Shown here one piece after another: positions 9,917 to 49,797 of a stretch of 64,000 nt of DNA. A model generated the notes under the pieces. The model made no database searches, had not been told where the DNA came from, and was given only the letters and a program-made list of their open reading frames with translations. The DNA is from Antedon mediterranea. Its lineage: Eukaryota; Animalia; Echinodermata. Both the position numbers and the translations under genes were made by a program. Location: contig NC_092670.1 in assembly GCF_964355755.1 (NCBI RefSeq), forward strand, positions 2,780,201 through 2,844,200. The letters are read 5' to 3'. Each line of letters starts with the position of its first letter. Position 1 is the stretch's first letter.

Positions 9917-10448
9917 ATTATTATTATTATTTATTCTTTCTTTATTCTGCAGGCACTTTCAGTGCACTGATTTCCAAAGTGGTACAGTAATTGAAAATAT
10001 AACAAACATAATAAAATAAAGACAAAGAGTAATTGAAATATACATAAAAATAGCAATCAATTTTAGAAAACAAAAAAATCTGTTAAAAATGTTGAGTACT
10101 AATTGTATTTTGGAATGAAGTTATTGAAAAATCTTTAAAGTTAATTTTTAATTCATTGGGAAGTTCATTCCAGCTTTTAGATGAACCAATTCTCCAAAAT
10201 AATACCCTCCTCCCCTATGGTGGGGCATTACATTTCAACTGGCTGTCTTTATAAACAAAACCCAAGTTAACTTCCCTTGCAAATAACTTTATACAAATAA
10301 GATAATTCAATACTGAAAGTTGATCCAGCATATTCACAAAACCACCAAAATTATCCTATTCCAATGGTTGAGCAGATTTAGCTCCTATTTATGTAACACT
10401 AGGATAACGTATCTCAACGTATCAATTTCTATTCTAGTCTTCTTGTAG

Positions 10449-10900
10449 CCTAGAATAACGGCTTGAAACGTATCTCTTATTTTCTATTTTAGGGAACACC
10501 CTAAAATAACGGCTTGAAACGTATCTCTTATTTTCTATTTTAGGGAACACCCTAGAATAACGGCTTGAAACGTATCTCTTATTTTCTATTTTAGGGAACA
10601 CCCTAGAATAACGGCTTGAAACGTATCTCTTATTTTCTATTTTAGGGAACACCCTAAAATAACGGCTTGAAACGTATCTCTTATTTTCTATTTTAGGGAA
10701 CACCCTAGAATAACGGCTTGAAACGTATCTCTTATTTTCTATTTTAGGGAACAACCTAGAATAATGGCTTGAAACGTATCTCTTATTTTCTATTTCAAGG
10801 AACACCCTAAATAACGGCTTGAAACGTATCTCTTATTTTCTAATTTAGGGAACACCCTAAAATAACGGCTTGAAACGTATCTCTTATTTTCTATTTTAAA
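10449..10900. repeat. 51-bp minisatellite, about 9 copies
   Basis: CTAGAATAACGGCTTGAAACGTATCTCTTATTTTCTATTTTAGGGAACACC; a further single unit with duplicated flanks at about 11055-11250. Confidence 0.95.
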
Positions 10901-11438
10901 GATCCCTCAAAAATATCTATTTTCAACGAATCATTGATAGCAAAGCCTGTACTAATTCACGTATTTCCCTTCTGGCGTGATGACAGAGTACAACACTTAG
11001 CTTTATTATCTTTGTTTTCTTAGTAGTTCAACTGAGGAATTCCAGGAACATCGGTTTCTATTCTAGTCTTTTCCTATCCTAGAATAACGGCTTGAAACGT
11101 ATCTCTTAATTTCTATTATAGGGAACACCCTAATATCGATTTTCAACGAATCACTGATAGCAAAGCCTGTACTAACTCACATATTTTACTAGCGTATAAC
11201 AGAGTACGACACTTCGCTTCATTATCTTATTTTTTTCCACTCAGGAATTCTTCAGTTCGTTTCTTGTTGACGTACACACAACAGTGTTAAAAGAAATTAT
11301 GACAATCTGAGGTAGGTGTGTCTCATTAGAGTGCAATGTTGAATGAACTATACCCTAACAGGGGTTGCTATGGTTATTTATGGTAAAATTTTTGTAATAT
11401 TTTCCACTCTTCGGGGAGAGAGGGGCTATCCAGGTAAG

Positions 11439-11870: not shown

Positions 11871-14800
11871 TCAGACACTGTTAACAATCCGTGTTGATAA
11901 TTCTACAAGAAAGTAAATACAAATTGCTATGTTTTTGGTTTTATATATATAAAGTTATATAAATTTGAAAAATATAAGAAATAAAAAAAAGTTTTTATCA
12001 AAATACCATAACAATTTTTTAATTCAATAATTTAATTTCGCCATGATATTCATTGCTGGCCTAGGTACTTTCACTTGTGCGCTCGCATCGTGCGGTTTAT
12101 AGCGTAAGCCTTCCTGGAGGAGGCGTAGAATGTAAGACCACAGCGTTGATAGTCTTAGGCTTAGAATTAAACGCAACTGATTCGCAACAAGTTTATTGTT
12201 AAATTTTTACTCATGTTTTATGGCGTTCTCTTTCTGTTTTATAATTTGTTACCTTTTGTATTGTTACATATTTTTATATATCTGTAAAACGAGCAATGAA
12301 TTTCGGAAAGGATTAGTAAAAGATTTGAATTTTTATTAAGCCAGTGGTTTCATCTTGGGCTTAAGTCTAGGCTTACGACCTTTATTACAATCTGCCTCTC
12401 ATATTTTCACCCATGAGTTAGATGTATATATACCATACTGTAAATAGAAAATGCCTCAATACAATCGAATAACTGTAACTCACAATTAATAAATATTAAT
12501 GTGAACTAGGAATTACAATTCTGCAATAAAAGTCTAAATAAGTAGAATATTATGACCCCCAACTCTATTGAAATAAAACATACTTTCTGCATTGCTTTAT
12601 GGTCCAGCTTCACTTCTTGATCATTTACCTATAAAAAAAAAGGATTTTATATATATCCATGTTGATGAATGCTATTACTATATAACATTGTGTGTTAATA
12701 AATATGTTGAAATATTAACCCGAGTCTTGATTTTTCATCAACATTATTTAAACGTCTAAGAGACATTTTAAATATAAACATAAAATATTAAGTACCACAT
12801 CAGAACATAAATCTTAACTGCACCTTATTAAACTTTATTTATATAGCAGTTTAATAAGTTATAAACATATTTGACTACTATACAGTAAATGCTATAAAAG
12901 TATAGATTAGGTTAAAAAATATCAAAATCAATCAATCAATATTTATACCGTTTAAAGACGAAAACATTATAGGCCAATATAGTATTTATTTTTACATTAC
13001 ATTCAGTTTGTGACCTTATTAGATCGAAAAAACGTATACAAATGCTATTAAATAAGTACAATACTCAAAGTGAATTTGTAACACAATGTTGACTTACAGA
13101 TTGCAATAACAGAAAAATCACTTTTTGAAAAAAAATGTAAAAACATACTTTCTGTATTGCTTGATGGTCCAGCTTCACTTCTTGATTGTTCAACTATAAA
13201 TAAAGTATTTTAGTACAGTATTACAACATCCATGTTGATGAATATAATATTATAAAGCCTTTTATCAATAATATAATTTGTTTCCCTAAAACCATTCAAC
13301 TACAGACTTATATCATGTTATTTCTGCTGTATTTGTGAATGAGCTAATTATACTGCTTTGGTTTACCTTTTAGTGTTGTCAATGCCTCCACTTCTTTCGT
13401 CATCTTCTCATCTGTAAGCAGTTTAATGAATTTGTCCATCTTCTCTCCTTCTGCAAGTGTGTCTTTCATTTCCAATTTTAAGATTAACCAAAACGGATCC
13501 GTTTTGTTATTGACCTTAATGCCTTTAAGGCGGCCAATTCTTAAAATGTTCTCTGTATGCAATTTCTGACCAAACGCTATCAATTTTCTTCGATACTCTG
13601 AAAAATGTGTGAATGGAACGCATTTAAAGTCTGGTAATTTCACAGTTTTTGCAATGACGTCTTGCACTCCCTGAAGTCCACATATATTAGTAGCTTCAAC
13701 AAGGATACCAATGTCTGCCGCTTTGAGAAGTCCAGGACCCTCAAGTAAACTAATCAGATCATAGGGTGTATTTTCACTCTCTATTTTTTTCAAAGTAATG
13801 GTTGTATCACGATTCGTGAACTCGCTAAGTAACACTCTCAGCATGTGAATGTTTCCATTTTCCTTCCACCAGTCTGATACCTCTACGAGCAGTTTATTGT
13901 AATCGTCTTCATTCCAATCTAATAATAGTAATAATATGATTCATTAATAATAATATCATTACGTGTTAAAGAGTCAAAACTGTACCATATAAATAATATG
14001 TGGTAAAATAATGTATTGATTTTATATTTATTCTGACATTGTATTTAAGGCACTTAATTCCTGCTCCTGTCCATCAGTCACATTCAATTTACCAGGGACA
14101 AAAAGTAGTGAGCCCTCTATTGGCTGCGAATCGTTTTCTATCTATCAAGACAGCATGAACAAATTGTAATTTTGCAAACTGGCCAATTGGAACTTTTGGT
14201 TTTATTTACTAATGAATAATTCATGAAAACATTTGACACGGCATCTACGAACCACGTGATATTGTTTTTTAATCAACAAAGCCATTATATTTGTGTCAAA
14301 CAAGGGTGAATGACACCGATGTTTAAAAAAAAATGTTAGGCTATTCATCATGGAGGTATTATACCTCCATGGGCTATTCGAATGTTAAAATTTCGTCTAA
14401 TTTGTTGAGGCTGTAATAAAACAATGCAATTTTTGAGAAGGTGGGTTTTATAGTTTCTGGATATTTGATTTTTCAATAGTAGTTAATAAAAAAATCTTGT
14501 TTGGTGTAGTATTTTTTTTAATAGCTGCTTAAACATGTGCCTGTCACGATAAATATGGTCCGGGGCCAAAATCGGTCCGGCCGGACCAGTTTTGGCTCTA
14601 AAATTGTGGCCAAAAGCAGTCCGCCACTGCCAAAATCGGTCCGGGCTTTTCTTCTGTCGATTTTAATTGAATTACTAGGCCTATGATGCTGTTTTAAGTT
14701 GTTTATGGCTAGAAAAATATCCCATGATATATATTAGTAAGTTATCTTGTCGGATAAATACTATATAAATAAATGTATTTTTTCTAGAAACATGACTTAG

Positions 14801-17800
14801 GTGTTAACTCATATTTCGGCCTGCCACACACTCACATGAACGGGTATGAGACGCTGATATTGCCAGCTAGATTTTATTTATGATTGAGGCCTTTTTCCTT
14901 CCTCAACCTAATCAATATTGGATAATTGTTTTATAATAATTTTATTGAATTTATTGATTGATTAACCATAAATAATTAATAAATTAAATTGTTTTTAACA
15001 TCATGGGGAAACGAAGATGTTAAAAAAGAACAAAATGGATTGAAAACAGGCAGAGATACATATTGTATACAAAAAGCCTAACAATTAGTACTAATTATTG
15101 ATGAGTTACTACTAATAATGATAATTAAAAAAACAGGCTTAATTTATAATATTAAAATAGCAAATAAAACCCCGTAGTTTTCAATATAATGACTTTTTTT
15201 AATGATATATACATTATGACTCATTTTGCGCACCATATATTTGTAAGACCGGACCATATTTGGCGGCCAAAAACAGTCCTATTGCCCGGACCGATTTTAT
15301 CCAGGCCGGACCAGTTTTGGCGGCCAAAATTGGTCCGGCCGGACAGGTTTTGGCAGCCATAAATGGTCCCCCGGACTGATTTTGGCAGCCAAAACTGGTC
15401 CGCCGGACCGATTTTGGCCCGGACTGATTTTGGTTTGACATGCCTTCTTGGGTATTGTACTGTTGAAAATGGAACACATAAAATCATTTTTACGCCATAA
15501 GATTAAAAATGTTGCTTTTTAAAATAATAAGAGCAATATATATATAGGGAAACTGTTTTTAATCATAAAACTTTACAAAGCCTCTTTGTTTTATTTATAA
15601 ATAAACAGATCAGTTAGGAGACCCAGGCTAATAGTGGGGTAGTGCGTGCAATGTTGGCGCGTGTTCATTGTTGGGCGCGCGTTATTTATATAGGCCTAAG
15701 AAAATAACAATAAATGATTACAAATATAACTAAATAATGATTATTATTAATTTAATGTTGTTTTGTTTTTTACAGACCACAGAAGGTTGTTCTTATAAGC
15801 TTTCTGCATTCTTCAATACAATAGCATTAAATCAACAACAATTTCTCCTATTAATTTACCGGCATATGTGAAACAACACTATTAATAATACAGTAATAGA
15901 GAGAAATGGCGAACCGCGATGACGTCACTCAAATTTCACTGAGTGGGTATAGATTGTAAACAAACCATTTCGCCACATGTTTTTGTATGGGAAATTCCGA
16001 TGGGTTGAGTTAAAAAAGTAGTTAGAAAAGAACGTTTAAAACACACATAATAGCAGTATCTTTTTTTTTTTGGCAACCCCTTAACAATTTTAATGTTATA
16101 TGGGCAAATCTTAACATATTTTATTTTAATTTGGATTGAATTAAGACGCGTTTTTGTTATATACTGTACCCAGCTCTAGGCCCTAGTTGGCCTGTATATG
16201 CTGTAGTACCTCGACGAGTACTCGAGCCTAGCACGGATTATCGGTTATTATAATAATAATAATAATAATAATCATAATAATAATAATATTGGAAATTCGT
16301 TATTGCATACTGTACTACTACTATACTAATTTAGCTAGGGTGCTGCAAGCCTCTCCTAGCTAGGTAGTAAGACTAAATAGAGCATCTCTAGTAGATGTAG
16401 GCCTAGCATTAGTTTCAGCTTGACAACTGCCATTTTGTTATGTGGCTAGTGATCGCTTCCTTCCTGCAGGGGGCTATCGCCAGTAATGAATACTTGATAA
16501 CACCATTCTACTATAATACTATAGGCCTAGTCTAATGTAGACCTACAGATATGAGATATTTTTAGGAATATGATTGTGAATGATGGATGACTTTTATACA
16601 TAACAAGAATTATGAGCGTTAACAGCAACAACATAATAATTGGTTAGACGACGCCATGATTCACGTGTATAAACATAGGAAATGTGCCGCCCTCAAAGGT
16701 TTGTTATGATTTTATACCCACTCGGATTTTAGACGCCGGTTCGCCATTTCTCTCTATTATGGATATCTATTTTTATTGCCAAAGGACATTTAATTTTTTA
16801 AATCTTTAACTTATCCTAATTTACTTATTTAAAGATTCAAGCGGAGGTTGGTTGTTGTGCGGTACAGTGAAATTTCATTTGGGCTCTGATAAAAAGTAAT
16901 AATTTACAGCATATACTTAAATCAATCATACTTTAGTGACAGGTGACATTAGCATGTAGTTATTAGGAAATTACTAGTAAGTCCCCACTTCACCCAATTC
17001 TTAATAATTTTAAGAAAAATAATAAATAATTTGTTTCACAATTTATAAGCCCTGTGTCCCCATATATTAGATTAGATTATAAATCAGCCACTTAACAAGA
17101 ATTACAATCGAGGGGCCAATGATTCTTTTCGTCTAAGGAAACAATTATTCCAGCTCTGCCGCGTCTTCATAGGCCTACACGCACCATGCTTTCGCTAAAA
17201 ACAAACCTATATTCCTTATAGAATTTATTTGAAAAATAACACCAAGCTTATATTTATGTTTATCTTAGAATTCGAATAAATGAATCCACAACTAAAATTG
17301 GTACTGTTGTGGTTTTAATATATGAATGTTCCTAATAAACCGAAATCAATCAAACAACAATATAATTTAATATAAACGAGTTAAAACGGAAATTTAGACA
17401 GCCTATAAAACATGGAACTCGCGCTGTCGTGACGTCATTGTATGGCCACACGAATGTAAAATATGGGATTTGTATCTCTATCGTTATTGCTCATCACATT
17501 CAATAGAGCGCATCTCGCTTATCCGTATTGCATTTCCCCCGATATTTTAATACTGTCTAGGTCAATCAACTATTTTTCGCATGAGTTAAAAATATTTTTA
17601 TTTTTATGACGTCATCATGCCTAAAAATTTAAATTACGTGGGTCATTAATTTCATCTTTACAGTATTTTTTAATCTGTTATAGCTCGTAAGAATAAAATG
17701 TGATAATCACGATTAAAACGTTTTCTGGAAGCTATTGGATTGCAGATATGAAATCATGTGAACATTTTGCCAATCGGATGTTGTGATGTCATCATATGGC

Positions 17801-20800
17801 CAGTTAAATAAAAAAAGTTGTATTTTCATCTTTTGCGTCATAATTCATTACATTAAAAAGAGCGCGCATCTATATATTACGTATTCAAATTTCTTCTACA
17901 CGTTAATATGTTGTTGCTGAGATAATTTCCTTCCGAAATTGCTATCTTAGTGTTTCATTTTGATACCTTCGCAATGTTAAAAATTGGAATAAATGGCGGG
18001 TCCCGTAATTTCACCTATTCTACACTGTATGTAATATGTATACACATTATACTAGCTCTGTATACTACTGTATATGACACATAGACAGAATTCAGCACTA
18101 ACAACATGTCATATTCTTCATTTCAGGTCATAATGCCATAATCTTTATCTGTGTGCAATATTCCAACATATGACGTGCATGAGGCGTTTGTCGTGCGGAT
18201 AACCTAGTTAAATATTATATTGCTATACTAAGAATGACTGGTTCTGGTTTTAGATATAGCAACAATAACATAATGTTAATAATAAATGTTAATATATAAG
18301 AAATAGTTCATTATTATAAGAAATAGTTCATTATTTAAAACCACATGATCTAATTATATGTATGCATTTTAGAAGGATCAAAAATATTATTTAAGTCTAT
18401 CCTACTGTACCTGATAATAAAGGACATGCATAGTCTGTTCTATCCATTTGTGGCGGTTGTCGTGGTAGATTTGAAGATGTAGATGGCGCATCTAAAATTA
18501 CAAAATATATTAATACTCTAATTTATTTATTTGTTGACCATTCATCTTTGAAAAGGTTGCACTCACAAAATGCGGTGAGGTCCAGTAAATAAAAACCAGA
18601 ACATTTTGAAAAAAAAAAATTATTCATTAACCAATTTCATGTTCGCCTTGTTGTGTTCATGACAATAAAGATTCCTCTTATCTTATCTTATTAAAAATAA
18701 CGAAGTTGAAATATATCCATGCAACAATACAAGCAATCATCTTTTATCTAATTTTGGTAATTGTTAATAATACTGTACAGTGGAACTTCCTGTAGTGTAG
18801 ACACCTCTTATAACAGCATAGGTGGATCCATAGGTGGATCCAGGTGAGGGAGAGGACAGTGGAGTTAGAGCCATTAATGTATTAAAATTGTCCACCAATG
18901 TAAATATTTATTTTGTTCGATCTTGGAATAAAACTGTCAATGTTTTAGGCCATTTTAAACATTTCATAACTTGCCACAGACACACAGATTTTTGTGAATC
19001 AATTTGTATACTGTATTGGTTGAAATAACAAATTATTTTATTTTGATTATGTGTTTGTGGATAACTTTGATATTAAGGTCTGCGAAAAAAATAGTATATG
19101 TCATCATTGCCTCTTTACGTATAATGTTATGGATAATTTAAAACATACTTTCTGAAAGGCTTGGTGGTCTACCCGTTATGCTTGATTGGGTCTCTGTAAA
19201 ACCAAATTGTATACACAGTAGTTCACACTTTTGAAGCTAAACCAGTTTCTCAATTACCATTCATTACAAAAAGTAGTACTAATATAGAATTTGATGTGCA
19301 TAAGAAAAAGAATTTCTTTATTGCAATTTTGAAATTTGTTTAATCTGGATAGAATCCAAACTATTAAAAGAACTATTAGAATTATTAGTGTTAATTGGAG
19401 ATTAAGGAATGGTATGCTGGAAATGATTATTATTTTATCTGTATGTAATACAGTTTTATATTATAATAGTAAAGTCATTTGTGTAGGCTCTGAAAATTCT
19501 TAGTAGAGTAGAGTTACATTTGAGGGTACCACTGTACTGATGCTTAAAATAACTAAATTATAACATACCCAAGCCTTGATTTGGTATTCCAAGTCTCCCT
19601 GCGAAAGTAAACAACAAGACTCTTTAGCTTTGATTGAACGGTCTTTGTTTGCTGTAACCACATTTAATTATTGAAAGTATTTCCAGTTGATCTGTGCTAT
19701 GACAGCAAGATTAAGAATAATTTAATTTGCTAACATATGCTAAGAACTGCTGGCAATCAAACAAAACAATCTTTGTACACTGTATCTCTTCCCATGGCCC
19801 TCAACCGAAAGCTGTAGTTTAATACTTACATTCAAATGGTAACTGGTATATTTGGTATCGTGTTTGTACTGTTAATATCTTTGCCTTAAATACATCTTTT
19901 CGTGGATCCTTTCTTTTTACAGAAAATTTGCTCCACGTTTTTGCTTGCCATATTTCATTAAATCTTACATTCTGTAAACAAATTTACCTCTTTTACAGAA
20001 TTTAAAATGAAAGTAGGATAAAATATTTAAAGAAAGTTTAGAGTTAATGACAATGCCTAAAGTCTATGTAATGCCTAGCTTTCCTGGAAAAACTGTTAAA
20101 TAGCCTATTTTTCTTGAAGAGCGAAAATTCATCAACCACCCTGGCAAGTTCAAATCTGTTTTACTTCTGTTAATATTAAAATTATTATACCTGTGTTGGT
20201 GGGGTTACATCCCATCCTTCATCTTCTTTTTGTACTGTAATGTTCATATCGTTGTGCAATAAATCTATGCATTTTGGCATTTCTATGGCCGTCTCCCCAT
20301 ATTCTTTTTCCTCGCTCAATACCCTCTGAAATATGAATAAAGTATATCAGAAAACATTACATATTCTGTAGTGCATGTGTGCTTCAGCAGTGGATTTTTT
20401 ATTTTATAACACACCTGATTGTATTCTTGCAATTTGATTGATCAATTAGGCATCACGTTTCATTTTGAATTTGCCCTATCTAATGAAAAAGTGATATCTA
20501 CAGTAATGGTGATAATGAACGACTCTAATGCATGTTCAGCTTTGTGTAAACATTAATTGAGATTTTTTGCCATGCAATGTTGACTGATTCAGATCGGAAA
20601 TCAACTTGCTGGGTGTGCCGTCCAAAACTGTTCTACTCCACGTCTAAAGTTGACTGCCTTTTTTAATTTCCCTAGCTTCCCAGCCTAGCATCGTCAATGA
20701 TTTACAATGGATAACTTGAATAAAAGTAGGGGTGTTATAAAACAAATAATGAATGTTTGTATTCGTTGAATGGAGAGAATATTTCATTTGTTGAAAAATT

Positions 20801-23800
20801 GATTTCTCTATTTAACGAGGCATAAACATTAATTATTTGTATAGTATCTTAATTCAAAATTATTATATAGTTATAACATCAACAACATTACCGTTTCTTC
20901 CTCGCTGTCCCAGGTTCTTACTCGAAGTTGTAATTCATTATTCAGCACTTTTCCAAATACACCTAACATTACTCTCTTTTTAGCATAACAAATATTTTTT
21001 ATAACAGCTACAAGAAGATAGTCAGAAAAATGGTTTAAACGTATACAACATTGACCCTTGTGTAAAGAAAAGGTTATGTCAACTTCATTTCTGTCCAGTT
21101 TTATTTTTTGCCATTCTCCTTGACTGGATTTTTTAACAAGTAAAGTGAATTTCCAACACTCTTCATTTACAGCATTATGTGGAAATGACAGCAAGCAGTG
21201 GTTTCTAAACACTGTGCCTGGTGGTCCACATCTAACAGCAGATGAAACTATTGTTTCAAGAGGATTAGATAAAGAAACAGTAGGAAAGGAAATGTTCTCT
21301 AATGAGACTTTAACATTCTTTCCTTCTTCAATTGCTCCAGGATTTATCACCAATTTTATGTCTTTATCCTTAAGATAGAGAGTTCCACCTTCAGAGTTCA
21401 CAATTAACTCCATAATTTGACCTGTGGGATGAAAATGTTTAGCATTATTTTATTACTTTTATTATTGGTTTATTTATTAACAATTATAGTAACTGCCAGA
21501 GAGGTTTACAATGTCACTGGAACGTTGTGCCATAAAAAAAATACCTATTAGTTTAGTTTGTCTTTATGAAGTTAGTTTACCATTTTAATTGACTATTTTT
21601 GTGTAAATGCTATAGCTATACCTGGTTCCGATTTAACATTTTTATGTGTTTCTTGAAACTCTTCAATGCTGATCAATGACTTCTCAGGTGATTTATGGAA
21701 TGAACCTGTTTTATAAAAGAATAATGATAAATAACTGAACAAAATAGTCACTTGATCAGCCAGTATATAGTACAGGATAGATTTGAAGGACAATTTTGAA
21801 GGTGGGTTGGAAAAGAGGCTGATGGCTGGGCTTTCTAGAGCATTAGGCATTTCTCTCCCTTAGCAGAATCAGTCCATTTCAGGTGAAGAATATATATATA
21901 TATATATATTTCGATATACATTTTACTTAAGAATTAAATAACTAAAATTTATGATGATTAAAAAGTATGTTATGCCTATGTTTTCTTTCCTGTGTGTGTG
22001 GTATTTCCATCAAGTGTGTGCCACAATTGTTTTGAGGTAAACAATTGACAACAAAATAGGACATTTTAAGAAAAAAGTAAAACTGAGGCGGTTGAACATG
22101 GCATCTAAATGAAAGACATCTTGTGTTTGTATTGTATAACCTTGACTGGTTGAACATGTACTGTATTCGTAAACACATTTTCTTCCACATGACTCCAGTG
22201 GGATAACCACTACACATACCACTGTACATTTATAAATATTCACACAGAGTAATATCAAAGAAACTAATATGCCTAATTAATGTGTTTATCTTTCCTCTTT
22301 CTCTTCTTTCTTGGCCCTTGTATGTTTTCCCTGTAGTATTTAAAGCTCTCAACTGTGTTTTATCGATATTAAACATTACACATTTTTATGATGGTGGTCC
22401 TGAAATTTGTAATTAGTAATGTATACCTTCATCATCCTTGATCTGAATCATATTAGCAAGGTCTATTTGGCCATGATCATTTAGGGCAATACACAATACA
22501 TCAAGTTGATTCACATCATTACTTATCTTGTTCCTCCAATATATCATCATTTCTTCAGCACCATTAATTAGATTTTTACCAAACTCAACCACCTTTGACC
22601 AGCTAAGACCCAAATTATAACCAAACGGTTGCCAATCAACGATTTCCTCAGACACTTTTCTGATGGTTGGATCATCCGCATATCCTGTGATAAGGAACAA
22701 ATTCAGTGTTTACTTAAGCTATACAAGCTATATTATTAAACTGATAACATTAAAATTTATTATGATCTTTTAATTTTATTATGATGGAAAACCTATTAAA
22801 ACTGCTTACCTTCATTATGATTCTGTGATGGTTGTATAGCTATAAAAAACAAAACAAAAACATACAAATTTCAACAAACTGTGTACATATTTATTTTTAA
22901 TTAGTACTGTATCTCAACTTTAATCAAAACATCCAAATTAAACTGTAATTATCTCTCCTACAAAGTATTTTTTCACCCCTGTTTGTTTGCCTATTTGTGG
23001 ATTTATGTGTGCACAGTATAATAGGCCTCATTTTTATGCAATTCTTGACGGAATTTGAATTTGATGGGGCAGGGTCACATTTTCAACAACAAAAATATTT
23101 TATATAAATTTTTTACCGGTTACAAGCTACACTTTTTATCTGAATCTTGCAAAACAATGATTCAGATAAAGTAGTAGTTCAAATAAATCTTGGTAGAAGT
23201 ACAGTATGCACTCTCATAATGCTTTCTAGTTAAACAAATTATTTTGCATTGTGCCAAAACACTAAAACTATATTAAAAAACTTACTTTCATCTTGTGACT
23301 TTAAAGTTTCTATAAAATAAATATATGTAAATTAATCAATAATTTAATTGTACATTGTTATTATTTTTTGCATTTATATTTGATTATTCTGTAAAACTGT
23401 TGGAAAGTAGCCATTAGAAGTGTTCTCGTTTGTTTAGAGAAGGAAATCACTAAAAAAGTAATTAATATTAAGTCTATTTATTTATACTGTATAATTTATG
23501 TCATGCATTGAAAAGAAATGCATTTACCTTCAGGTAGTACATCTTCCCCAAACAATTTACGGTAAAGTTTAACTTCCATTTTATTGCTTCCACAAGGTAA
23601 CTCATCTTTGTCAAACTTGCGAATAAGATGCATATGAGCATTTTGAATGTTTGGACTAGATGCACAAGGGATGTACATCCTTACTTCAAGACCTCGGGCA
23701 TCCTTCTGACTGAATACTTTCAACTCTTTTTGAAGAAAATGAAGAACCTAAAAAACATATATATAACAATCATAATAATTTTCCTTTACTGTATGTACCC

Positions 23801-26800
23801 CAAGTGTTGAAAGATGAACAAGGTTCTTTAAAGTGCACTGGATCTCCAGTTTTAAACCCTTATTCAAGAAGACTTGTTCTACCACCAGGACTATAGTCAA
23901 GGAGTTCTTTGAATTTGTGTTTATTTTATAGGTCTGATTTAAAGCTCCCCTGCCTCTCAACAATTGAAGTTGTTCCTGTATTATCACTTTCATATCTACT
24001 AGCCTACCTTCTTACATACTTCAGGTAGTGGCTTAATGTTGTCTTCTAGAGAACTATCAGCCTTGATGCTTTTTGTTCTGACTATCGTTGTCTGCAATAT
24101 ACAATAATGAACCTTGTGAATGATAGTCTTGTATTTTTTTTAATAGATTACATGTTATTTCATTTGTCAGAGGTGAACACATTTTACAGATTATAGCAAT
24201 CCATACAATAGACATGCTCTTGATATACAATATTGTACAGATATATTTAAAAGGTTATTATGTGGTGAACTTAACCAAGGCATGGATTAAAGAATAGAAG
24301 GATATGCATCAGTTTGAGATCAAAGCTTCCATGACTCTAACCTACAGAGCGTGGACCGCCCACAATGTATACAAAGTAAACACAGTTTAATTAACCGTCG
24401 TAACAACGAAACAGTCGCGTGCCTAATATATTGTTTACTGCAAATGCTCAACAACCTTTAACCTTGTTGGCTATGCTTTCGCGCTCTTGCCTTGGTGGCG
24501 TGATTATTTTATATTTTTAGCGCTAGCTGCTATGGTGACGAAACAAACTTTATGCGAACAATATGATATATAATTCAAATATAAAAATTGCATATTTTAT
24601 TAATATTACCAACTACTTAAAATTACCAGTCGTAAGAAAGTGAACTTTTCGTAGTCCGATTGTGATGAAAACTGAAACAGAATTGTTCAGCAGTATATTG
24701 TTGTTGTCAATTAATCATCGATGCATGTCAATAGAACATTTGGACTGCGCATACGATTTCTACATGGCTACGTTTTATTCTCAAAAAATGTAACAATTGA
24801 TTCGCAGCGTGCTACAGAGGGCCGCAGTTAGAGACACGGAGTTCAATGAGCGTGTTTGTTTGATTGGCAGCATTGCTTTAGTATATATTGCAAGCACGTT
24901 GGAAAATCGTATGATATCACCGATGCATATCCGTCTATTCTTTAATCCATGGTCAAGGCAAACCTTTAGATAATTTTACCTTTCATAAATTGTGTTTTTA
25001 ATGTAGAAAATATGTGATTAAAATTGTTTTAATGAAAGTTATTGGTTATTTTTGGTGTAGAATACTTTGTAGATTATAGGCATTAAAATTTAAAAACTGA
25101 TGACATGGCACTGGGTCTTTTATTTATTGATTTTTCTACTATATATATTAAATACTGTACCAATTTTTAAAATGTACCTGTAACATACGGCAATGCTTAA
25201 TGGTAGCCACATATAGAATGACTAAATGTTCAGCATCAATATTCAATTCTACATGCTCATACGATAGGCGAGGTTCAAAATCTTCCATTTGGAATTTCTC
25301 AATGAATTTGGTTGCAGCACGTTGAAAGAGATCATCTGGAAGATAGCTACCAAAATCATGAAAGAGTGAAATTGCATACTTGTCTTCAAATTGGGGCACT
25401 GGTAAGGCTTCTGGTTTAAGACGTGAGAGAACGTAGAAAATTTGTTCGTCATTCTATAAAATGAAAAGGAATATGTCTAATAGATGGATAGTTTTGTAAA
25501 GAAGATTAATTTAATAGTTGAAGGCATTCCTGGTTTCAATATCAATACCTTTTTACTAGCACACATTAAACCAAACTTTTCCATTAGAGACACAAAGAAG
25601 TCAAAACTCTCAGAATCACAGAACTCTTTCCACAGATATTTTAACAAACCAACTTCTAAAATGCCAGTGTCCAGTCTTTGCCAAGCTTTCCACATTACTG
25701 GCTCCTATTAAAAAATAAATAAAATTCTGTGTAGTTTTCAATTAGTCAAATTATTTAGGAATATTTAATAAGGACATTAGTAAGAAGATTTTTTAGTAAC
25801 TCTGAATATAATTAGGATATTGAGAATATTGTTTCTTGTATACCTGTATATTTATTTGTACAGTTAAATACAGTATAACAAATTTCACAAAATTGTTATT
25901 GTAATGATTGTACACTGTACCTGTTGTTACTGAAGTAAAAATTTTTTTGAAATAAAAATCTTACTTTTTGCTTTTTAGCATGATGCATACTGAATTTATA
26001 TATTAGATACTAGAATAAGAATACAGATTGGAGAGAGCAGTGTCAAAATATTTATTTGCTAACCATATTTTCAGGCTCTTTAACAGTAATGAATGTTTTT
26101 GACATGTCAACTAGTTTCATCAAATCTATAACTATTATATCTCTTAGTGCCTCATCATCTGGGTAGTAGAGAATCTCGCCAATGTCATGTAAATACTCAA
26201 GCAGGAATCGCTGATTTTCTGTAACTTCACAGTCTTTTAGTAAAATGTGTACCTGTAAGAAAATAGGTTCATAATAAAAATTTACAATCTGAAATAACTC
26301 TAATTACTTTATTTTCATCATTTTTGTAATTAATTTATGAATTGCATTTCACTAAATGTTCATGAAATTTAGATGCAAGTGTCATGATTTATCTATTATA
26401 AAGCACTTTATAAATTTATAATATCATCAGTACAATGGAGATGCAACAGTACAGTCAAGTCTTTCCAAATACAGATCAAAATGGTAATAAATTTTTTTTA
26501 AAGCAAGTAATATTAATTCTTTATAAAATACTTCGTTTTCCATATTGCATTGATCATTTATAAAAATAATATTTGAATTTACAGAAGCGTGTTTTGCTTT
26601 TCAGTGTGTACCAATTTCTATGTTATTATTACATCAGCATATTTTTAAAACGATTATTTTCATGCTTGTATTTAACCTTAGAAGTTGATAAATAGATGTG
26701 CTCTTTTTTGAAGCTTTGGATTTCCTGCTGTCCTCGCAGCCATTTTATTGGTAAAGTGCGAATCATTTTTTTGGAAAAGTCCAGTATATGTTTCATGATG

Positions 26801-29800
26801 ACAGAAGCATTGCTCTGTTTAAATGGTACACTGTTTTCAATGGTAAAGATAGTTGAAAACACCATAGCCTCAAATGGTTTGTCTTTTAGGGCTTGCCAAA
26901 TTGTTTTCTTTATTTCTGCAATCTGAAAAGAAACAAATTATACATGTTTCATACATGATATTCATACAAGTTATCTGGGTGTCTCAACATTTAGAAATAT
27001 GGCAGTAAACATAATGAATGATCTTCCTGTTTTATACTAAAATAAAACACTGAAATTAAAAAATTGAATGGTGCTACCACTGTCAAGTGTTTCCCAACTT
27101 GACCCAAGTTGTGGCACAAAATTCATTAACAAATATCACTATTGTTTTTTTTTGCACCACCCTGTGTATTATTCACTCATTTCCGTTTCTCAATGGCAGA
27201 TCTTGAATTCACCTTTTGTTTCTTTTCTTCTTCATTTCCTTTAAGGTCATTTAAATGTGTACCTATAAGTAAGACATGAGGAAAAAGCAGACCGTCTTCT
27301 GTCTTTGCGTCAGGTCTACTGTTTGTGTATATAGAACGAATCCAAGAAAGAATGAACCCCAGATTTGTCAATCGATGTGGATATGTTTCACCCTAAATAA
27401 TACAATAGTACATTATTGACAACATAATAACATTTAAATCTCAATCTCTTTGGTCGACTATTTTAATGTACTTGTTTACTTGTTTCCGGAGCTCAGCGGT
27501 GCTGGGCCCTTAGTCGAGGCTAGGCTATGCCTATAATCCCCTCTTGATAATTACATCAACTCTTGAATATGGCGCAAATTTAATGTAGCGAGAGTTTTTA
27601 AATTTAATGTTTAAACTGAATAGACAGTAACAAGTTTGAGGCTTGAAGCAATTTCACCAGAAGAGAGGTATTGCTAACATTTTTTTAAGGAATGAAATAA
27701 TGTTAGTTTTCTTTAAGTTTGTTTAAGCTAATAGTATAAGTACAGTGTAATTGTGACCAAATTATAAGTATGAAAAAAAAAAACTTATTATAATACAACT
27801 TACAGTTGTTGGATTCAAAACCTTAGCTGGAACATTAAGATCATCACAAAGGTTGAATACTACACAAATAACAGCAAAAGATACCATGAAGATCTATGAG
27901 ATCAATTAAACAGTGACATTCAATTAATTGTAAAGTATAAAAAGATTCTTGACTATCAATCAAATTTAATTTTTGAATTGTCTTTGTGTTTCATAGTGTT
28001 TTACATTTAGATTAGGAAACGCCTTGTCTAAATTTATTACAGATTTACCATAGTACTAGAATTCTTAACAATAAAATTTTACTTGTTAATTTTTTTACTA
28101 TATATAGTGTCTTTTCCTAACCTTTGGGCGCGTTTATACAACACGCTATTACACGCATATTCAACACGCCTACGAGAAGTGTGTTGTATAACATCGAAGA
28201 GATTCCGTGTAATGAGATTTTAATTGCAAAAAAGGCTACTTGGCTGAATCCTAACATTTTGTGGAGACCCGGTTGCTGTTGGTGTGTTGGAAGTGTCCTC
28301 AGGGTATTGTTTTGACCTCTCGTTAAATAAAAGTATGTGCTGTGAAAATGTTGACCAAATCTAGTAGATAATTGTGATTTTTTGGCATATTTTAACCTAT
28401 TTAGCACTTAAAATTAACGCTAATCAAATGTTGGCATAATTTGGCAAAATGTAGCATAGTTTTATCCTAATTCTAAAACATTTTTTTTCTAATTTCAAAA
28501 GCAAATTAAAAAAATCAATAATTGAATAAACTAAATTTTAAACGAAATCATCCTTTATTAAAATCCTTAATATAAACTCATATTAATTCATAATGCATAC
28601 AAGTATATATACAACTTAGGATTATGAAATATGGTATAACACGGTATTACGATTTCATGTATAACTGCAAGGTTTTTGTGGGGTTGACCTCGGCCCGTGC
28701 AACACGCTAAAAATTAAACATGTGTTCAAATTTAGGGTGTTGTATAAACACAGCCCAAGTGTGTCTTAATAGATGACCTGTACACGTATAACTATCCCTT
28801 TACTCCTTTTCTCACAGAACTGTGTACTGGGAATATGTGGGAATAACTTATTACCATTCTAGTCTGATTTTCTGTCAGAATGGGTCATGCAGGCTCCATG
28901 CCAGCATCAGGTAGAATATCCAATATATACTAACTGAAAGTTAGTATACTGAATATTCCCAGCAGGATTGATTGCTATATGCTGGTAACAATGCTGGCAT
29001 CCATACCAGCATTTTACTTCCACGTCTGTGAGAAAAGGGCTTTGTGTAATAAAATGTAACCACTTTACCCGCTGCATCACATGATAAATTGGTTGTCCTC
29101 CAAAATCAGAGATGTTCATCACAAACTTGTCGCTTGTCGCCTTGTCTTCACTTCCTTCTTTCTGAAACTCAATCTCTATTAATTCTTCAATTTTTGAAGG
29201 AATCTTTGTCTGGTCATCACTTCCTTCTTTCTCAAACTCTATCTTTGAAGGAATCTTTGTCTGGTCACCACTTACTTCTTTTTGAAACTCAATCTCTATC
29301 TTTGAAGGAATCTTTGCCTGATGTTTTTCTTGCTCTATATTTAAAAATGTTAAAATATTGTACTAAATTCATAAAAATAAATTCATTAGTTAACAAGTAA
29401 AGTATCCAATATTATGTTTCTGAATGTAATATATCATTTGAAGGTTTGCATGGCAAAATCAAATGTTGTTATAAAGTTTGCAGTACAGCATGTTATATTT
29501 AGTTCTGTTGGGTTTCTCTACATTTCTATCAATATAATAATAAACTTTCTGTATGTACTTTTTATAGGCTTTTTATTAGGATAATTTATTATAGGATTCT
29601 AATTATTTTATCAATGGTAATTAAAATTAATAATTAAATGTAGAAAAATACATTGTCAGACAATTTCATTTTTAGAAATGAAAGTGAAAAGGATAAAGGA
29701 ACGACAGAATATCAACATTTCCAATGATTTCAGGTCCTGGATTTGTTTCCCTAATGATTCTACGCGGCTTTTCGTTTCCTGATTGAAAAAAGAGAAAGAA

Positions 29801-32784
29801 AACCTTGTCAATTAGTAAGAGGAGAATTTAGCACATGCCTCTTAAGATGTTCCTCTTTCAATGAGTTTGTTTTGAGAATAATAACAAATATATTTTCTGG
29901 TTAAAACATGAGCAGAGGTGCCTTGAAAATAGTAGGTCTAGTTATTTCGACACAGAGAGGCCCATAGTTTTAACAAAACAAACAAAAAATTGAAATAGGC
30001 AAAGTATATTTGTTTTGTATTATGGATCAAGCATTTGAAGAAACCAACTGTTCTAAAGTAAACTTCTTCTCAATTTAACCACCTCTTCCATCTTTTTATT
30101 TTATCCGTCAACGGTTATTTTTATTTCAATATGACATGAATACAGAAAAAGTTTACATGATAGACAACAAAGCAACTAGAATCATATTGAGGATCTACAC
30201 TAGAAGAATAAATTATTCTTGTCATGTATAAGACCCTTTTTAAACTAAAATAATATAGTTAGCTAAGTAAACATATAAAGAAAAAGAGACAATAAATAAA
30301 ATATCGAATAAGTGAGAACTAATTATAACAATAAATCGAATATCAAAGCCCAGGCCACAAGTCAGTCCATGTAAAATTCAGTGCTTAGTTTTGGTAGAGC
30401 AGACAGTGAAATATTAGGTGTGAAATGTAATAATGATATGCCTTGCACTTGAAATTTCTATAAATATTTTTGATTACCCTCATCCATTTTGCTTTCTTCT
30501 GTTTTAGTTGATTGTGCTGGATTTTCTTTTGACTGTTCTTCTATTCTGTCTTCTTTCACATGCTTCATGGGAGCATTTTCATAATTGCCATAAGCCTGTT
30601 TTGTAGATGCTGTTGCATTTTGTTTTCCTTTCACTTGTTTCACCACTTCTCTAGCAATTGCTTTCTCATACATTTTAGAAGCTTTAAAAAAAGTGTACAG
30701 TAGTTTGTTTTTGTATATTATTGTTTTTGTGTTTGTACACTATGAATATGTTAATTATTTATTAAAATGTTAAAAAGGAAGAAACACACATTTAATTGAT
30801 TCATTTGCTGTGCCAGCTCAGGAGTCGCAAAAGCAGGAAACATGAAGGACGTGTGGCTCCCTACAACAAACCAACAAATGCAATATTGTACAAAGCTTTC
30901 AAAACAAAACATACATCACACACATTTGAATAATGAATATATCCATGATAAATAAATCCAGTTCTGTGTTATAAATAAATAATTTAGGTAAAAAGAAGCA
31001 AGTTATCAATTTATTTAAAATTTGTTTGAATTGAAGTAGTAATCAAGAAATTGTATGTAAAACAAATTATATAAATAACATCCATAAAACAAGACAATAC
31101 AACTACATAATAAGATTAAATAAATAAATATTAAACAAGAATCATACATTGTCTCTAAAACAACACAGGATTTAACATGGGATTTTTAAAGCAATAAAAG
31201 AGAAAAAAAATTACTATTTAATCACGGTGGATTGATTTGAATATTAGCCACTTGTATGAACTAATTTTCAAAGTTTTATGTTTTACGATTGTCACCCAGT
31301 TTTATTTCATTAATTTATTTTTATTTATTTATTTGATTATTTTAATGATGACGACCATGACTTTAAGTTTGTCTCCAAACTTATTTTGGCCTCCTTCTGC
31401 ACTCTCGTATTTTTCTACTCTTGTAATTTTGTTCCTTGTAAATTTTAAATGTGTGTGAAGAAAAGCAGTTATTAGATTTAGTTTAAAATTTAGTTTCATC
31501 AAAGTTTTTGTAGTTTTTACTTGTTTTATATATATGGTTATTAACATTTTCCTTTTGTTTACCATTACAGCATAAATAATTGAATAATCACTGATTATGC
31601 AATACACCGGCCTGGCTTACCCTTTTCTGTATTTGTGACATATATATGAAGGTTAATGTATTTTTTTAAATCTTGTAAAATCAGTTATTATATTTTATAA
31701 ATAATGATTTTACTGAAGCCAGAAAAATATGGGTTTGTCACAAAAGAAATATTTGCATACTTGTGTCAGTAAATGTTGGTTGGTTTTGACAGTATACTTG
31801 GAATTATATGTGCTACAAACAATTTTTTTAACATCTATGGAACCATTATTTCATGCATCTTAAGATGATACTTACATGTGTCTGGTAGTTCTTCTTTCAA
31901 TGTTGTTTCATCGACATCATCTTGAGTGCACACCGTTGTTGTTGCTATAGCGTCAGTTATGTCATGCTTTGGATTAAAACTATAAAAGAAATGTTGATTA
32001 AATTAAATATCGAATGTCAAAAATGACAAGAAAAAATGCCTTCTTGGTAGAGAATACTGTATTTGTTTATACTACGTCATATTATATTTGTTAAGTCTAC
32101 AAAATATGCTTTTTTTGTAGAAAAGGCAAAATTACATTAAATAGGTATTTATGAATTCTTGGTATCAATGTCCGATGACTTAATGTGTTTTACACCCTTT
32201 CGTCAATCAATTTCACACTTCAGAAAAATGTTTGTATAATAGGAAATGTGGTAAAATGCGATGGTAATGAAATGGTATTTTTATATTTTCAGTGTTTGTA
32301 ATGTTCACAATTCAGTTCATTAGTGGAAAAAACGCTGGTTTTCAGACGGAGGCACACACATATTTAGTGACATGATCCTTTATTTTTCTGGCAGCTATTG
32401 AAGATGTTAAGTTGTTTATAATTTTGTAATGTGTATCTTACATATAATGTCAATAATAATAACCTTTAAACAATATTGTAACATGAAACTAAAAGAAAGT
32501 GCAAATACTTCTTTTGAGAAGTGTATTTTATTGTTACTTTATTTGAAAATCACTTTTAATTGTAATTGTATGTGTTTGCTATCTTTTAATTTGATTTGAC
32601 AGTTTTAATAGATTTGCTTACCCTTTCCTTAGCAAAGCATTGATAGTAGAAGTTTTTCCTACTCCCTCAAGACCTACAAAAATAACTCTGCCTTGCTTAA
32701 CTTCAGCTTTCCCTTCTTCCAGGGCTTCATTATATGCTTTAATTGCTTCTGGTCCTCGAGCCTGTATCTCCACAGGAGTTAAGT
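11871..32784 (-). CDS. Multi-exon kinase-less ROCO gene: Roc-COR-Death-ZU5-UPA-DED-DED, 5'-incomplete, about 1,390 aa
   Basis: Manually spliced GT-AG exons with compatible phases, in transcript order: 32622-32784, 31876-31979, 30478-30681, 29069-29334, 27804-27893, 27213-27392, 26677-26922, 26064-26252, 25549-25704, 25178-25453, 24008-24091, 23528-23747, 23286-23309, 22810-22839, 22427-22684, 21622-21705, 20892-21421, 20191-20325, 19830-19971, 19569-19598, 19149-19193, 18411-18491, 13367-13918, 13149-13193, 11871-11902 (stop). No internal stop. Micro-exons and the last exon are less certain. Confidence 0.8.
13367..13918 (-). CDS. ROCO exon: tandem death-effector-like domains
   Basis: YNKLLVEVSD...PYDLISLLEGPGLL...D...LVE, then FSEYRRKLIAFGQKL...FWLILKLE; two DED-like units, phase 1-1. 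Confidence 0.7.
14542..15440. mobile_element. Non-autonomous TIR element, Ginger-like
   Basis: TGT...ACA ends, 4-bp TSD TGCC, subterminal repeats of about 21 bp (GGTCCGGCCGGACCAGTTTTGGC). Confidence 0.7.
15896..16757. mobile_element. MITE with TIRs of about 21 bp
   Basis: ATAGAGAGAAATGGCGAACCG / CGGTTCGCCATTTCTCTCTAT; TA or AT target, superfamily unresolved. Confidence 0.7.
17420..18208 (+). mobile_element. Partial Helentron-type copy (3' part), same family as 55149-61936
   Basis: Close to the reverse complement of 55190-55960; ends GCGGATAAC-CTAGTT. Confidence 0.75.
19830..20325 (-). CDS. Two ROCO exons (20191-20325, 19830-19971): UPA-like domain
   Basis: RVLSEEKEYGETAIEMPK...GWDV / VRFNEIW; follows ZU5 in frame. 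Confidence 0.65.
20892..21421 (-). CDS. ROCO exon: ZU5 domain with HF|S motif and start of UPA
   Basis: GGTLYL...LVINPGAI...SSAVRCGPPGTVF...LSFPHNA...RLNHFSDY. Confidence 0.85.
22427..22684 (-). CDS. ROCO exon: death domain
   Basis: DWQPFGYNLGL...EMMIYW...LCIALNDHGQIDLANMI fits the death-domain pattern; phase 1-1. Confidence 0.82.
22950..23231 (+). mobile_element. Decayed HINE related to 9348-9916
   Basis: TTTTCACCCCTGTTTGTTTG ... GCACTCTC ... CTAGTT. Confidence 0.45.
23528..23747 (-). CDS. ROCO exon: end of COR
   Basis: VLHFLQKELKVF...IPC...H.H...LPC; canonical splice sites. Confidence 0.75.
24281..24951. mobile_element. P-superfamily-like MITE
   Basis: TIR of about 30 bp, CATGGATTAAAGAATAGA(A/C)GGATATGCATC; CATG ends; degenerate 7-bp flank (CAAGG shared). 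Confidence 0.7.
25178..25453 (-). CDS. ROCO exon: C-terminal COR subdomain
   Basis: FYVLSRL...DFGSYLPDDLFQR. Confidence 0.8.
25549..25704 (-). CDS. ROCO exon: COR domain
   Basis: GILEVGLLKYLWK...LMEKFGLMC. Confidence 0.82.
26064..26252 (-). CDS. ROCO exon: COR domain
   Basis: FLLEYLHDIGEILYYPDDEALRDIIVID, the COR signature; not in the ORF track because it has no start codon. Confidence 0.85.
26677..26922 (-). CDS. ROCO exon: Roc end and COR start
   Basis: IFTIENS...RTLPIKWL; phase 0-0. Confidence 0.82.
27213..27392 (-). CDS. ROCO exon: Roc G4 region
   Basis: LSWIRSI...PHVLLIGTHLND matches the Roc 'W..SI...P.++VGTH.D' pattern. Confidence 0.85.
28124..28758. mobile_element. MITE
   Basis: Imperfect TIR TTGGGC..GTTTATACAACAC at both ends. 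Confidence 0.5.
28803..29041. mobile_element. Short copy of the Harbinger-like MITE at 34505
   Basis: CCTTTTCTCACAGA ... TCTGTGAGAAAAGG inverted ends. Confidence 0.55.
29069..29334 (-). CDS. ROCO exon: repeat insert plus Roc G3 motif
   Basis: Three QxKIPSKIE repeats followed by VMNISDFGGQPIYHVMQR (WDFxGQ-like). Confidence 0.85.
30478..30681 (-). CDS. ROCO exon: low-complexity insert within Roc
   Basis: SSKMYEKAIAREVVKQ...KMDE; phase 1-1, in frame with neighbouring exons. Confidence 0.7.
32622..32784 (-). CDS. ROCO exon: start of Roc GTPase with P-loop
   Basis: PVEIQARGPEAIKAYNEALEEGK...RVIFVGLEGVGKTS (GxxxxGKT/S); acceptor ttttcaag, donor GTAAGC. Confidence 0.88.
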
Positions 32785-33800
32785 CTTGAAAATAAAACTT
32801 ATTAAAATTAGTACACAATCAATGTAATTTACCAAATAGGGCATTCCACAGTATTTGGTCCGTGGGTTGAACAATTGTATTTACTGATTTTGATATAACT
32901 CTATCCATTTCTCAAAGTAGAAGTTTATTAAATAACATTTTTTTTATTTTTCTGATATATAGTTTCTAAGTTATTGAATATTATGAAAAACCATATTTCA
33001 ATCAATCAATTCAATCAATCAATCAATTTCACGGACAGGACATTTTAAAATTCTATTTATTTCATAAACTATGCATCTTATTACTGTTTTATCAACAGAT
33101 ATAGTTACTTTATGTCTCAATAATACATAATTCAAGTATTTAATTAAAATGTTGTTGTTTATTAATTCCATACATGTATTTCAAATTCATAAATGTCCAC
33201 GACGTTTTAAGCAGTTTTTTTACATTTATTTTAATGATGCCAAAAATCTTGATATTTCATTTTCTCCTGAGGACTATCATTAGATTATTAACACATTTGT
33301 TAAAAATGTTATATTTTGATGAAAGTATCAGATTAAAAAAATATATTGTTACAGACGGGACATTTTTGTTATGGACGAGACATACAGTATCATTTAAATC
33401 CTAATTATTTCACAAACCATGAATCTTTTAAACATTTTTTTGCCAGATAGGCCTATAGTTACTCGATGTCCCTATTGTACATGGTAAAGCATTTTATAAG
33501 ACATATTGTGTTTATTAAATTTCATATATGCATTTAAAAATTCATAATTGTCCCGTCCTTGCATAGTTTTGTGGTGTTTTTTACATTTCAGTTAAAAGTA
33601 TTAATACCACAATTTATATTTTTGTTTTCTCCTTTTAAGAACTATATGTAATACATTATAAATCCAAAGGCAAATTACTGAGAAAAATGACAATGCTGTG
33701 GGTATCAGTGGCTGGATCTCAATGGAGATACAAAAAAAAAAAAAAAAAAAAAAAGCGAAAAGCTAAATCAAAACGATAAAGTAAACAGCCAGAAAAGTTA

Positions 33801-40047: not shown

Positions 40048-40261
40048 TGTAGTGTCTATAGACACGGCGACCGAGAGGTCAAAGGTTGTAGAGCACATAA
40101 AGTGTGTGTGCGGTTTTGTTGTGCTGCGAGCACGCCATATCGATAATAAAGGCACCGTTGTTTGTGTTAAATAGAGTTAACCCGTCTCGTGTTATTACTA
40201 CATTGTTATGACGACTAAGAGAGTAAGTGTATAGGAACTTACAGAGGTAACTAACTTTACA
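40048..40261 (+). repeat. Gypsy 5' LTR
   Basis: Identical to 49798-50011; contains AATAAA. Confidence 0.96.
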
Positions 40262-40286
40262 GTGGCGACGAGTATAAATTTATAGA

Positions 40287-44564: not shown

Positions 44565-44663
44565 TAGCATTTTATAATAGTAAATTTGACTTTTTTTTTA
44601 TTTTGCACAAAACATTTACAGTACTCCAGTTAATAAATTACAGCGTATAGCTTATTTTTCATT

Positions 44664-46181: not shown

Positions 46182-46356
46182 GGATCACTGATTTTGATAA
46201 ACAGTTAATCTGCGCTTGCGCGAATTCGCTGATTGGCCGGTGACTTAGCTAATTTGCATAACAAAGAGGTATACTACACTGAACCTGGCGGCAAGTGCCA
46301 CACAAAGGGAAATCGCTAGCGTTTCCAATCTCTTTGATTGTTGTCTCAGCGGACAC

Positions 46357-49726: not shown

Positions 49727-49797
49727 AAGTTTATAGTTTTAATGTTATAGTTTTAATGTTAGTTAATGTTAGTTATCTTAAATGAGAAAAGAAGGGA

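Follow-up and report, generated by a model that had tools for sequence, protein, structure and literature searches.

A locus of the feather star Antedon mediterranea raises the question of what a ROCO protein with no visible kinase does with a ZU5-UPA module and a caspase-8-type death fold at its C-terminus. The window analysed here, 64,000 nucleotides of AT-rich eukaryotic DNA (assembly GCF_964355755.1, NC_092670.1, positions 2,780,201 to 2,844,200), carries on its minus strand a chain of 25 exons encoding Roc-COR, a death domain (DD), ZU5-UPA and tandem death-effector domains (DEDs; the pair is referred to as tDED). The product, from a crinoid ROCO family that shuffles fast, is read as a self-cleaving intracellular adaptor in death or immune signalling, and its UPA-tDED piece would nucleate DED filaments. 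Judged from sequence, this reading is given a probability of about one half.

Gene model and domain order

The exon chain was assembled from the sequence and runs from 32784 to 11871. All introns are GT-AG, and all exons are open over 4.15 kb in a single frame that stops with TGA at 11873-11871. The model encodes 1,384 amino acids, or 1,409 with a putative extra 5′ exon. The exon count and the ends given in the first-pass annotation for an in-frame Roc-COR-DD-ZU5-UPA-DED-DED protein were reproduced, as was the lack of a kinase in the visible part. A figure for the chance of all exons being open (10^-29) is an unfair control, since the exons were picked for openness; homology is the real test. 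Annotated crinoid paralogs (P numbers) match 22 of the 25 exons at 39-100% identity, and those without a paralog match begin at 19598 (20%), 18491 (22%) and 11902 (none). The Roc-COR, DD, ZU5-UPA and tDED modules each have phase-1 introns on both sides. A tblastn search with 31 relatives found no further family exons outside 11800-32800 or within the introns.

Some joints are also seen in sequencing run X5, which is RNA by guess and comes from a different sample; its contigs, 80-95% alike to the window, represent paralogs or another individual. They join exons 6-7, 8-9 and 10-11 with the expected spacing, so X5 holds spliced family transcripts. Exon 23 differs from X5 at 22 listed positions (10/2/10 by codon position), a partial list that was not used as a selection test. 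The exons, with identities to paralogs, are as follows.

32833-32908 (-), putative ATG first exon, uncertain: in frame, phase 1 with the next exon; at most 16% identity to relatives
32622-32784 (-), exon 1: Roc helix alpha0 and P-loop G1 (GxxxxGKT, 32674-32648), phase-1 entry; Pfam P-loop GTPase; 94% to P0016/P0003
31876-31979 (-), exon 2: switch I (G2 threonine), by alignment; 100% to P0003
30478-30681 (-), exon 3: charged low-complexity insertion in Roc; 96% to P0001/P0016
29069-29334 (-), exon 4: repeat-like insertion and switch II G3 (motif DFGG, 29107-29093); 88% to P0009
27804-27893 (-), exon 5: Roc; 93% to P0016
27213-27392 (-), exon 6: Roc, G4 without aspartate (27263-27249), by alignment; joint to exon 7 in X5 contigs
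26677-26922 (-), exon 7: G5 and start of COR-A; 89% to P0016
26064-26252 (-), exon 8: COR-A; Pfam COR-A E 4e-7; 97% to P0009
25549-25704 (-), exon 9: COR-A; Pfam COR-A E 0.005; joined directly to exon 8 in two X5 contigs
25178-25453 (-), exon 10: COR-B; 92% to P0009; the local COR-B profile also matches P0062 and P0113, which carry Pfam COR-B
24020-24091 (-), exon 11: COR-B; 96% to P0009; X5 joint 24047/25178
23528-23747 (-), exon 12: end of COR-B, phase-1 exit; 93% to P0009
23286-23309 (-), exon 13: 24-nt linker microexon; 100% to P0007/P0009
22810-22839 (-), exon 14: 30-nt linker microexon; 70% to P0007/P0009
22427-22684 (-), exon 15: death domain, single phase 1-1 exon; Pfam Death E 4e-4; 52% to P0007/P0009
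21622-21705 (-), exon 16: linker; 39% to P0007
20892-21421 (-), exon 17: ZU5 and first UPA strands, HFS motif at 21032-21024; Pfam ZU5 E 4e-15; UNC5B alignment E 2e-10
20191-20325 (-), exon 18: UPA; 53% to P0007; paralog profile and model
19830-19971 (-), exon 19: end of UPA, phase-1 exit; 40% to P0007; paralog profile and model
19569-19598 (-), exon 20: linker microexon, weakly supported; phase fits; 20% to P0007
19149-19193 (-), exon 21: 45-nt linker microexon; phase fits; 40% to P0007; resembles exon 24 by sequence
18411-18491 (-), exon 22: linker; an X5 contig joins an exon-12-like piece here (18493/23548)
13367-13918 (-), exon 23: tandem DED, single phase 1-1 exon; AlphaFold2 fold, Foldseek, VIA-align
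13149-13193 (-), exon 24: 45-nt tail microexon; 93% to P0001
11871-11902 (-), exon 25: last coding exon with the stop, least supported; phase fits; no relative matches

AATAAA/ATTAAA signals lie past exon 25, at 11545 and 11007. A 45-nt candidate exon at 26009-25965 was dropped because two X5 contigs link exon 8 to exon 9 with the expected 37 letters and P0009 lacks it. Exon 24 has a duplicate at 12628-12584 (-) that was excluded for its in-frame stops, and an acceptor candidate near 29790, without a usable donor and unneeded for the frame, was dropped. Exon 21 (19149-19193) resembles exon 24 too and would be the third copy of this microexon, after the duplicate at 12584-12628.

Fold of the tandem-DED exon

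The case made in the first-pass annotation turned on the exon at 13367-13918 being a death fold, and a death fold is what AlphaFold2, Foldseek and VIA-align return. Pfam gave no DED match for the exon alone, and a tDED profile compared with PDB sequences found no DED, with two weak unrelated matches. AlphaFold2 with a 40-row alignment produced a model with a predicted local distance difference test score (pLDDT) of 94.7 and a predicted template-modelling (TM) score of 0.90; a single-sequence run reached a pLDDT of 36.8. The top Foldseek rows are caspase-8/cFLIP assemblies (TM score about 0.68, probability 1.0, best E 0.003). VIA-align gave a Z-score of 17.2 and a root-mean-square deviation of 2.6 Å over 168 residues, with caspase-8 tDED entries first (Z 16-17, tied), viral FLIPs at Z 12-14 and single DDs at Z 7 or lower. 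By these predicted structures, exon 23 carries two stacked DED folds of the caspase-8/cFLIP type.

ZU5-UPA module and predicted self-cleavage site

The Death match of exon 15 scores 20.9 bits, slightly under the cut-off of 22.6, and the ZU5 of exon 17 is matched directly. Pfam found no UPA in the window exons or in P0006/P0007. However, a profile built from three paralog proteins matches UNC5B across both ZU5 and UPA (E 1e-13), the model of P0007 matches UNC5C with a TM score of 0.80 over 276 residues, and the UPA of the window protein is 52% identical to that of P0007. The UPA assignment is supported through these paralog comparisons.

Within exon 17, the phenylalanine of the HFS motif aligns with L677 of UNC5B, which has QLG there. 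Cleavage of CARD8 at SF/S (F296) and of PIDD at HF/S falls at this position, with both serine and phenylalanine required (PMC3210808). In the window protein, the ZU5 is followed by UPA and a death fold, and the (H/S)F/S motif stands before the last ZU5 strand. The four other ZU5 copies compared have HFS (P0007 and the second ZU5 of P0006), HFC (P0080) and SFT (the first ZU5 of P0006), all retaining the phenylalanine and a possible nucleophile. As judged from the motif, the protein is likely to cut itself, and the piece set free would initiate signalling in cell death or immunity. The first-pass annotation did not include the HFS site, nor the family context and mosaic origin described below.

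Roc-COR tandem and nucleotide-binding motifs

Local profiles detect Roc, COR-A and COR-B in that order, with Roc directly before COR, the arrangement of a ROCO protein. Because COR-A is divided between exons, the Pfam matches of exons 8 and 9 each stay under the curated cut-off; paralog P0001, whose Roc-COR tandem is 72% identical, clears the Pfam cut-offs for Roc and COR-A. The G1 P-loop, the G2 threonine and the G3 DxxG are all intact. The residue ahead of G3, usually W, is S here and in P0009, and a charged insertion of about 150 residues separates G2 from G3. The G4 aspartate is replaced by N in the window protein. Among 22 proteins of the close group, one has D at this position (the rest have 8 N, 8 G, 3 E, 1 H and 1 R), in contrast to 16 of the 29 other rows. 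G4-G5 are reported to set guanine specificity and to vary across Roco proteins (PMC6337361).

Pfam reported no kinase family in the 14 exons scanned or in 24 Roc-COR relatives scanned whole, and no NACHT or LRR match in the exons scanned. The statement that there is no kinase or sensor is valid for the visible part alone, and the unseen 5′ end is its caveat.

Crinoid family and mosaic ancestry

Kinase-less ROCOs that exchange phase-1 exon modules form an expanded family in crinoids (Antedon, Anneissia), and the gene is a member of it. The nearest proteins are those of the feather stars Antedon mediterranea (85-97% identity over Roc-COR exons) and Anneissia japonica. Of the 26 proteins that a Roc-COR search returned, 22 are named crinoid, and all ten family proteins that were looked up are crinoid. 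A search with a profile of the tDED plus the Roc start retrieved 410 proteins at E 0.001; among the best 150 of these 410, 141 were new and were scanned, each scan giving the best five families per protein. By local profiles, Roc or COR occurs together with tDED in 31 of 172 proteins, and together with ZU5-UPA in two, P0007 and P0080. P0007 is COR-DD-ZU5-UPA-tDED in a 5′-partial model, and P0080 is Roc-COR-tDED-ZU5-UPA-tDED. Further architectures include tDED-Roc-COR-tDED, Roc-COR-DD-tDED, Roc-COR with up to 11-12 DDs, caspase-Roc, Roc-COR-HEPN and DED-Macro-Roc-COR-DD. In run X3, a DNA contig links COR-end, DD and tDED pieces and shows no ZU5 joint, which is the arrangement of P0008.

The tDED is also carried by NACHT-LRR proteins (12/141 scanned matches) and TIR adaptors (3/141). 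It is N-terminal on a RIG-I-like helicase and a Rel-homology protein (P0137, P0167), and the tDED profile retrieves the caspase-8-like P0115 of Anneissia (E 5.5e-13). It is therefore a module of the immune and death network.

The modules of the window gene differ in their closest relatives. Identity to P0007 is 90% for COR-B, 54% for DD, 72% for ZU5, 52% for UPA and 21% for tDED. The COR is 90-95% identical to P0007/P0009, and the tDED shares 80-85% identity with its counterparts in P0001 and P0003. A single clade of the window tDED and the P0007 tDED was rejected by the approximately unbiased test (p-AU 3e-37, 42 rows). By its sequence, the tDED comes from another lineage than that of P0007, the nearest ZU5-bearing paralog. 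The Roc-COR of the window gene is about 30% identical to that of P0080, and the ZU5s are 57% identical. A single Roc-COR clade of the two was also rejected (p-AU 0.00018, 32 rows; tree without the six long-branch rows P0028-31, P0144 and P0172). Two unrelated Roc-COR lineages carry ZU5-UPA; thus, there was more than one gain of the cassette, or there were many losses.

Some relatives have unusual combinations. P0036 of Antedon (XP_071950866) has a caspase domain ahead of a close-group Roc, that is, a ROCO with its own protease. P0103, P0129 and P0128 include Roc-COR with HEPN (DZIP3-like) and, in Anneissia, DED-Macro-Roc-COR-DD. A TAZ zinc finger precedes Roc in two separate proteins, P0010 and P0110, the former with KIX as well.

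Proposed mechanism and alternatives

A cut between F1011 and S1012 would yield a Roc-COR-DD-ZU5 piece of about 116 kDa and a UPA-tDED piece of about 46 kDa, which are predicted to stay bound to each other. Nucleotide-dependent dimer/monomer cycling of Roc-COR, clustering or N-terminal degradation could then free or concentrate UPA-tDED. The latter would nucleate DED filaments with a caspase-8-like or other tDED partner, and these filaments may trigger apoptosis or NF-kB-type signalling. The recurrence of the cassette on two Roc-COR lineages (P0007-type and P0080) supports such a use. The death or immune role proposed in the first-pass annotation stands as the best reading, with a tDED shared with NACHT-LRR, TIR, RIG-I and caspase-8-like proteins. 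Its suggestion that Roc-COR takes the role of NACHT is loose; CARD8 is not known to have a NACHT, and a self-cleaving adaptor in the manner of PIDD1/CARD8 is the better analogy. In NLRP1 and CARD8, N-terminal degradation after self-cleavage is the firing step, and their released UPA-CARD forms filaments whose threshold is lowered by UPA (PMC7794386). PIDD1-CC is reported to need self-cleavage, with local concentration deciding on firing (PMC7883297), a role that could fall to the dimer cycle of Roc-COR; CtRoco is described as mainly monomeric with GTP (PMC6337361).

Several points weigh against the adaptor reading. The G4 aspartate is lost in all but one protein of the close group; nucleotide preference and GTP specificity are therefore in doubt, which makes the earlier label "GTPase-gated" uncertain for this subfamily. 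The label "sensor" is likewise unproven, with no LRR, ANK or TPR exon seen in the visible part. Among the fold matches are tDED-bearing proteins without a protease (cFLIP, viral FLIPs), and such proteins can inhibit. X5 contains no transcripts joining the DD, ZU5, UPA and tDED exons of the window locus; at 80% likeness it has no cover on the DD exon or on exons 18-21, and gives no evidence either way on expression of the window copy. Several close database paralogs (P0003, P0007, P0009 and P0016) are fragments. Finally, paralogs have a phase-1 module, often tDED, ahead of exon 1, and tblastn with 31 relatives found no exon of any known N-terminus of the family in the 31 kb upstream to the window end. 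The putative ATG exon is in frame, but it would need an intron of 48 nt and nothing in the family matches it. The true start has perhaps been lost or is situated beyond the window.

If the protein is made, it might be a cFLIP-like brake or decoy whose tDEDs cap or poison the DED filaments formed by NLRs and by caspase-8; ZU5-UPA and Roc-COR would then set only localisation or autoinhibition, as in the uncleaved UNC5B tail. Caspase-8/cFLIP assembly chains as the top Foldseek matches, the viral FLIP scores and the lack of a catalytic effector of its own agree with this. However, VIA-align puts the caspase-8 tDED first (again as a tie), the HFS site is retained where UNC5B has QLG, and a shared fold does not tell the sign of the effect; we consider an inhibitory role unlikely. 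A similarly low probability is assigned to a silent recent recombinant of a birth-and-death cluster, unexpressed and without function here, its 5′ end lost to transposons. The mosaic ancestry of COR and tDED would suit such an origin, as would the missing upstream phase-1 module, a long terminal repeat (LTR) retroelement with a nested P-type transposase 7-17 kb upstream, and the many cluster neighbours that are partial models. Yet every one of the 25 exons is open and has canonical splice sites, even the DD and UPA exons, which diverge fast (40-54% to the nearest paralog), the order COR-DD-ZU5-UPA-tDED is also found in P0007, and ZU5-UPA occurs on Roc-COR in the P0080 lineage.

It is more improbable still that the modules belong to separate transcripts, with Roc-COR spliced to exon 22 and tDED without DD-ZU5-UPA, or with tDED as a unit of another gene. 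The X5 contig joining an exon-12-like to an exon-22-like piece, with 15 letters between them, would be such a product; skipping would keep the frame, given the phase-1 introns around all modules, and a 4.5-kb repeat-filled intron precedes the tDED exon. This contig, however, differs from the window in exon 22 (18447), and a paralog is the simpler explanation, as a COR-tDED paralog exists (P0001). No other terminal exon was found between the UPA and tDED exons, and in the annotation ZU5-UPA-tDED lies within one protein in both P0007 and P0080.

Relation to known systems

Kinase-less ROCOs are known from Trichoplax adhaerens (at least 17 genes; Civiero et al. 2014, PMC4104024), where they likewise form a lineage-specific expansion of Roc-COR with interchangeable death folds; ZU5 and DED are not mentioned in the main text of that paper, which describes no self-cleavage module. 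PIDD1 (LRR-ZU5-ZU5-UPA-DD) and Unc5CL share with the window protein a ZU5-UPA with HF/S, a C-terminal death fold and a predicted released fragment, but the window protein has one ZU5, Roc-COR-DD instead of LRRs and tDED instead of DD. NLRP1 and CARD8 (FIIND, which is ZU5-UPA, followed by CARD) are similar in their regulatory N-terminal piece, ZU5-UPA of the self-cleaving type and filament-forming death fold. They differ in having SFS in the FIIND, in contrast to the HFS of the UNC5-type ZU5 found here; the window protein is without NACHT/LRR and has DED instead of CARD. The Roc-COR tandem is shared with the C-terminal half of DAPK1, which also has a DD after it, and with LRRK2/MFHAS1; unlike these proteins, the window protein has no visible kinase, LRR or ankyrin exons, has the long G2-G3 insertion and has lost the G4 aspartate. 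The two-DED fold is that of caspase-8/cFLIP, although at 12-19% identity, in a C-terminal position and with no caspase domain. Brown-algal LRR-ROCO candidate immune receptors (PMC3341825, PMC11378527) are reported as a ROCO expansion with exon shuffling in which LRR exons vary, whereas whole effector modules are swapped here, in an animal. AP-GTPase-COR proteins with variable effectors are described in bacteria (PMC8195603).

The literature search, which reached few subscription journals, found no description of a ROCO with ZU5-UPA and tDED or of a crinoid ROCO family. One paper, PMC8195603, holds all the terms, each mentioned separately. Thus, a kinase-less ROCO with a death fold is already described (Trichoplax), and the combination of ZU5-UPA and tDED was not found in print within that reach. 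A lead against uniqueness comes from an ESM Atlas cluster, mostly mollusc and auto-named UNC5-family (COR-A 57%, Death 48%; score 0.77), so COR with UNC5-like modules may occur elsewhere.

The component parts and the shuffling principle are already known. If the adaptor reading is true, the gene would connect two switches that have been investigated separately until now, an LRRK2-type Roc-COR and a PIDD1/NLRP1 self-cleavage tripwire, to caspase-8-type DED filaments, and its output, which involves no kinase and can be tested, would help to ask what nucleotide cycling of Roc-COR achieves. The gene is also a sign of a fast-recombining and so far unstudied crinoid ROCO repertoire, parallel to invertebrate NLR expansions. 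A broader and distinctly more tentative proposal is that crinoids possess intracellular Roc-COR receptors parallel to NLRs, which would swap phase-1 effector exons (DD, tDED, caspase, HEPN, Macro) and repeatedly gain a self-cleaving ZU5-UPA that launches caspase-8 DED filaments, with guanine specificity relaxed in the present group.

Mobile elements in the window

The 31-kb region upstream of the gene contains, at 39463-50460 (+), a Pao/BEL-like frame (DUF1759 at 50005-50460) interrupted by the LTR retroelement. The latter has 214-bp LTRs that are 100% identical (40048-40261 and 49798-50011) and a pol frame of 1,147 amino acids, and the P-element-type transposase (42180-44564) is nested within it. 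Downstream of the gene, LINE-type reverse transcriptase frames lie at 3454-5466 (-). Tandem repeat arrays of about 51 bp and about 130 bp were found at 10388-11158 and 50896-52370. Inverted repeats of 1 kb (56000-57022 and 60153-61175, 99.3% identical) surround a degraded reverse transcriptase-like frame and possibly represent a foldback-type transposon.

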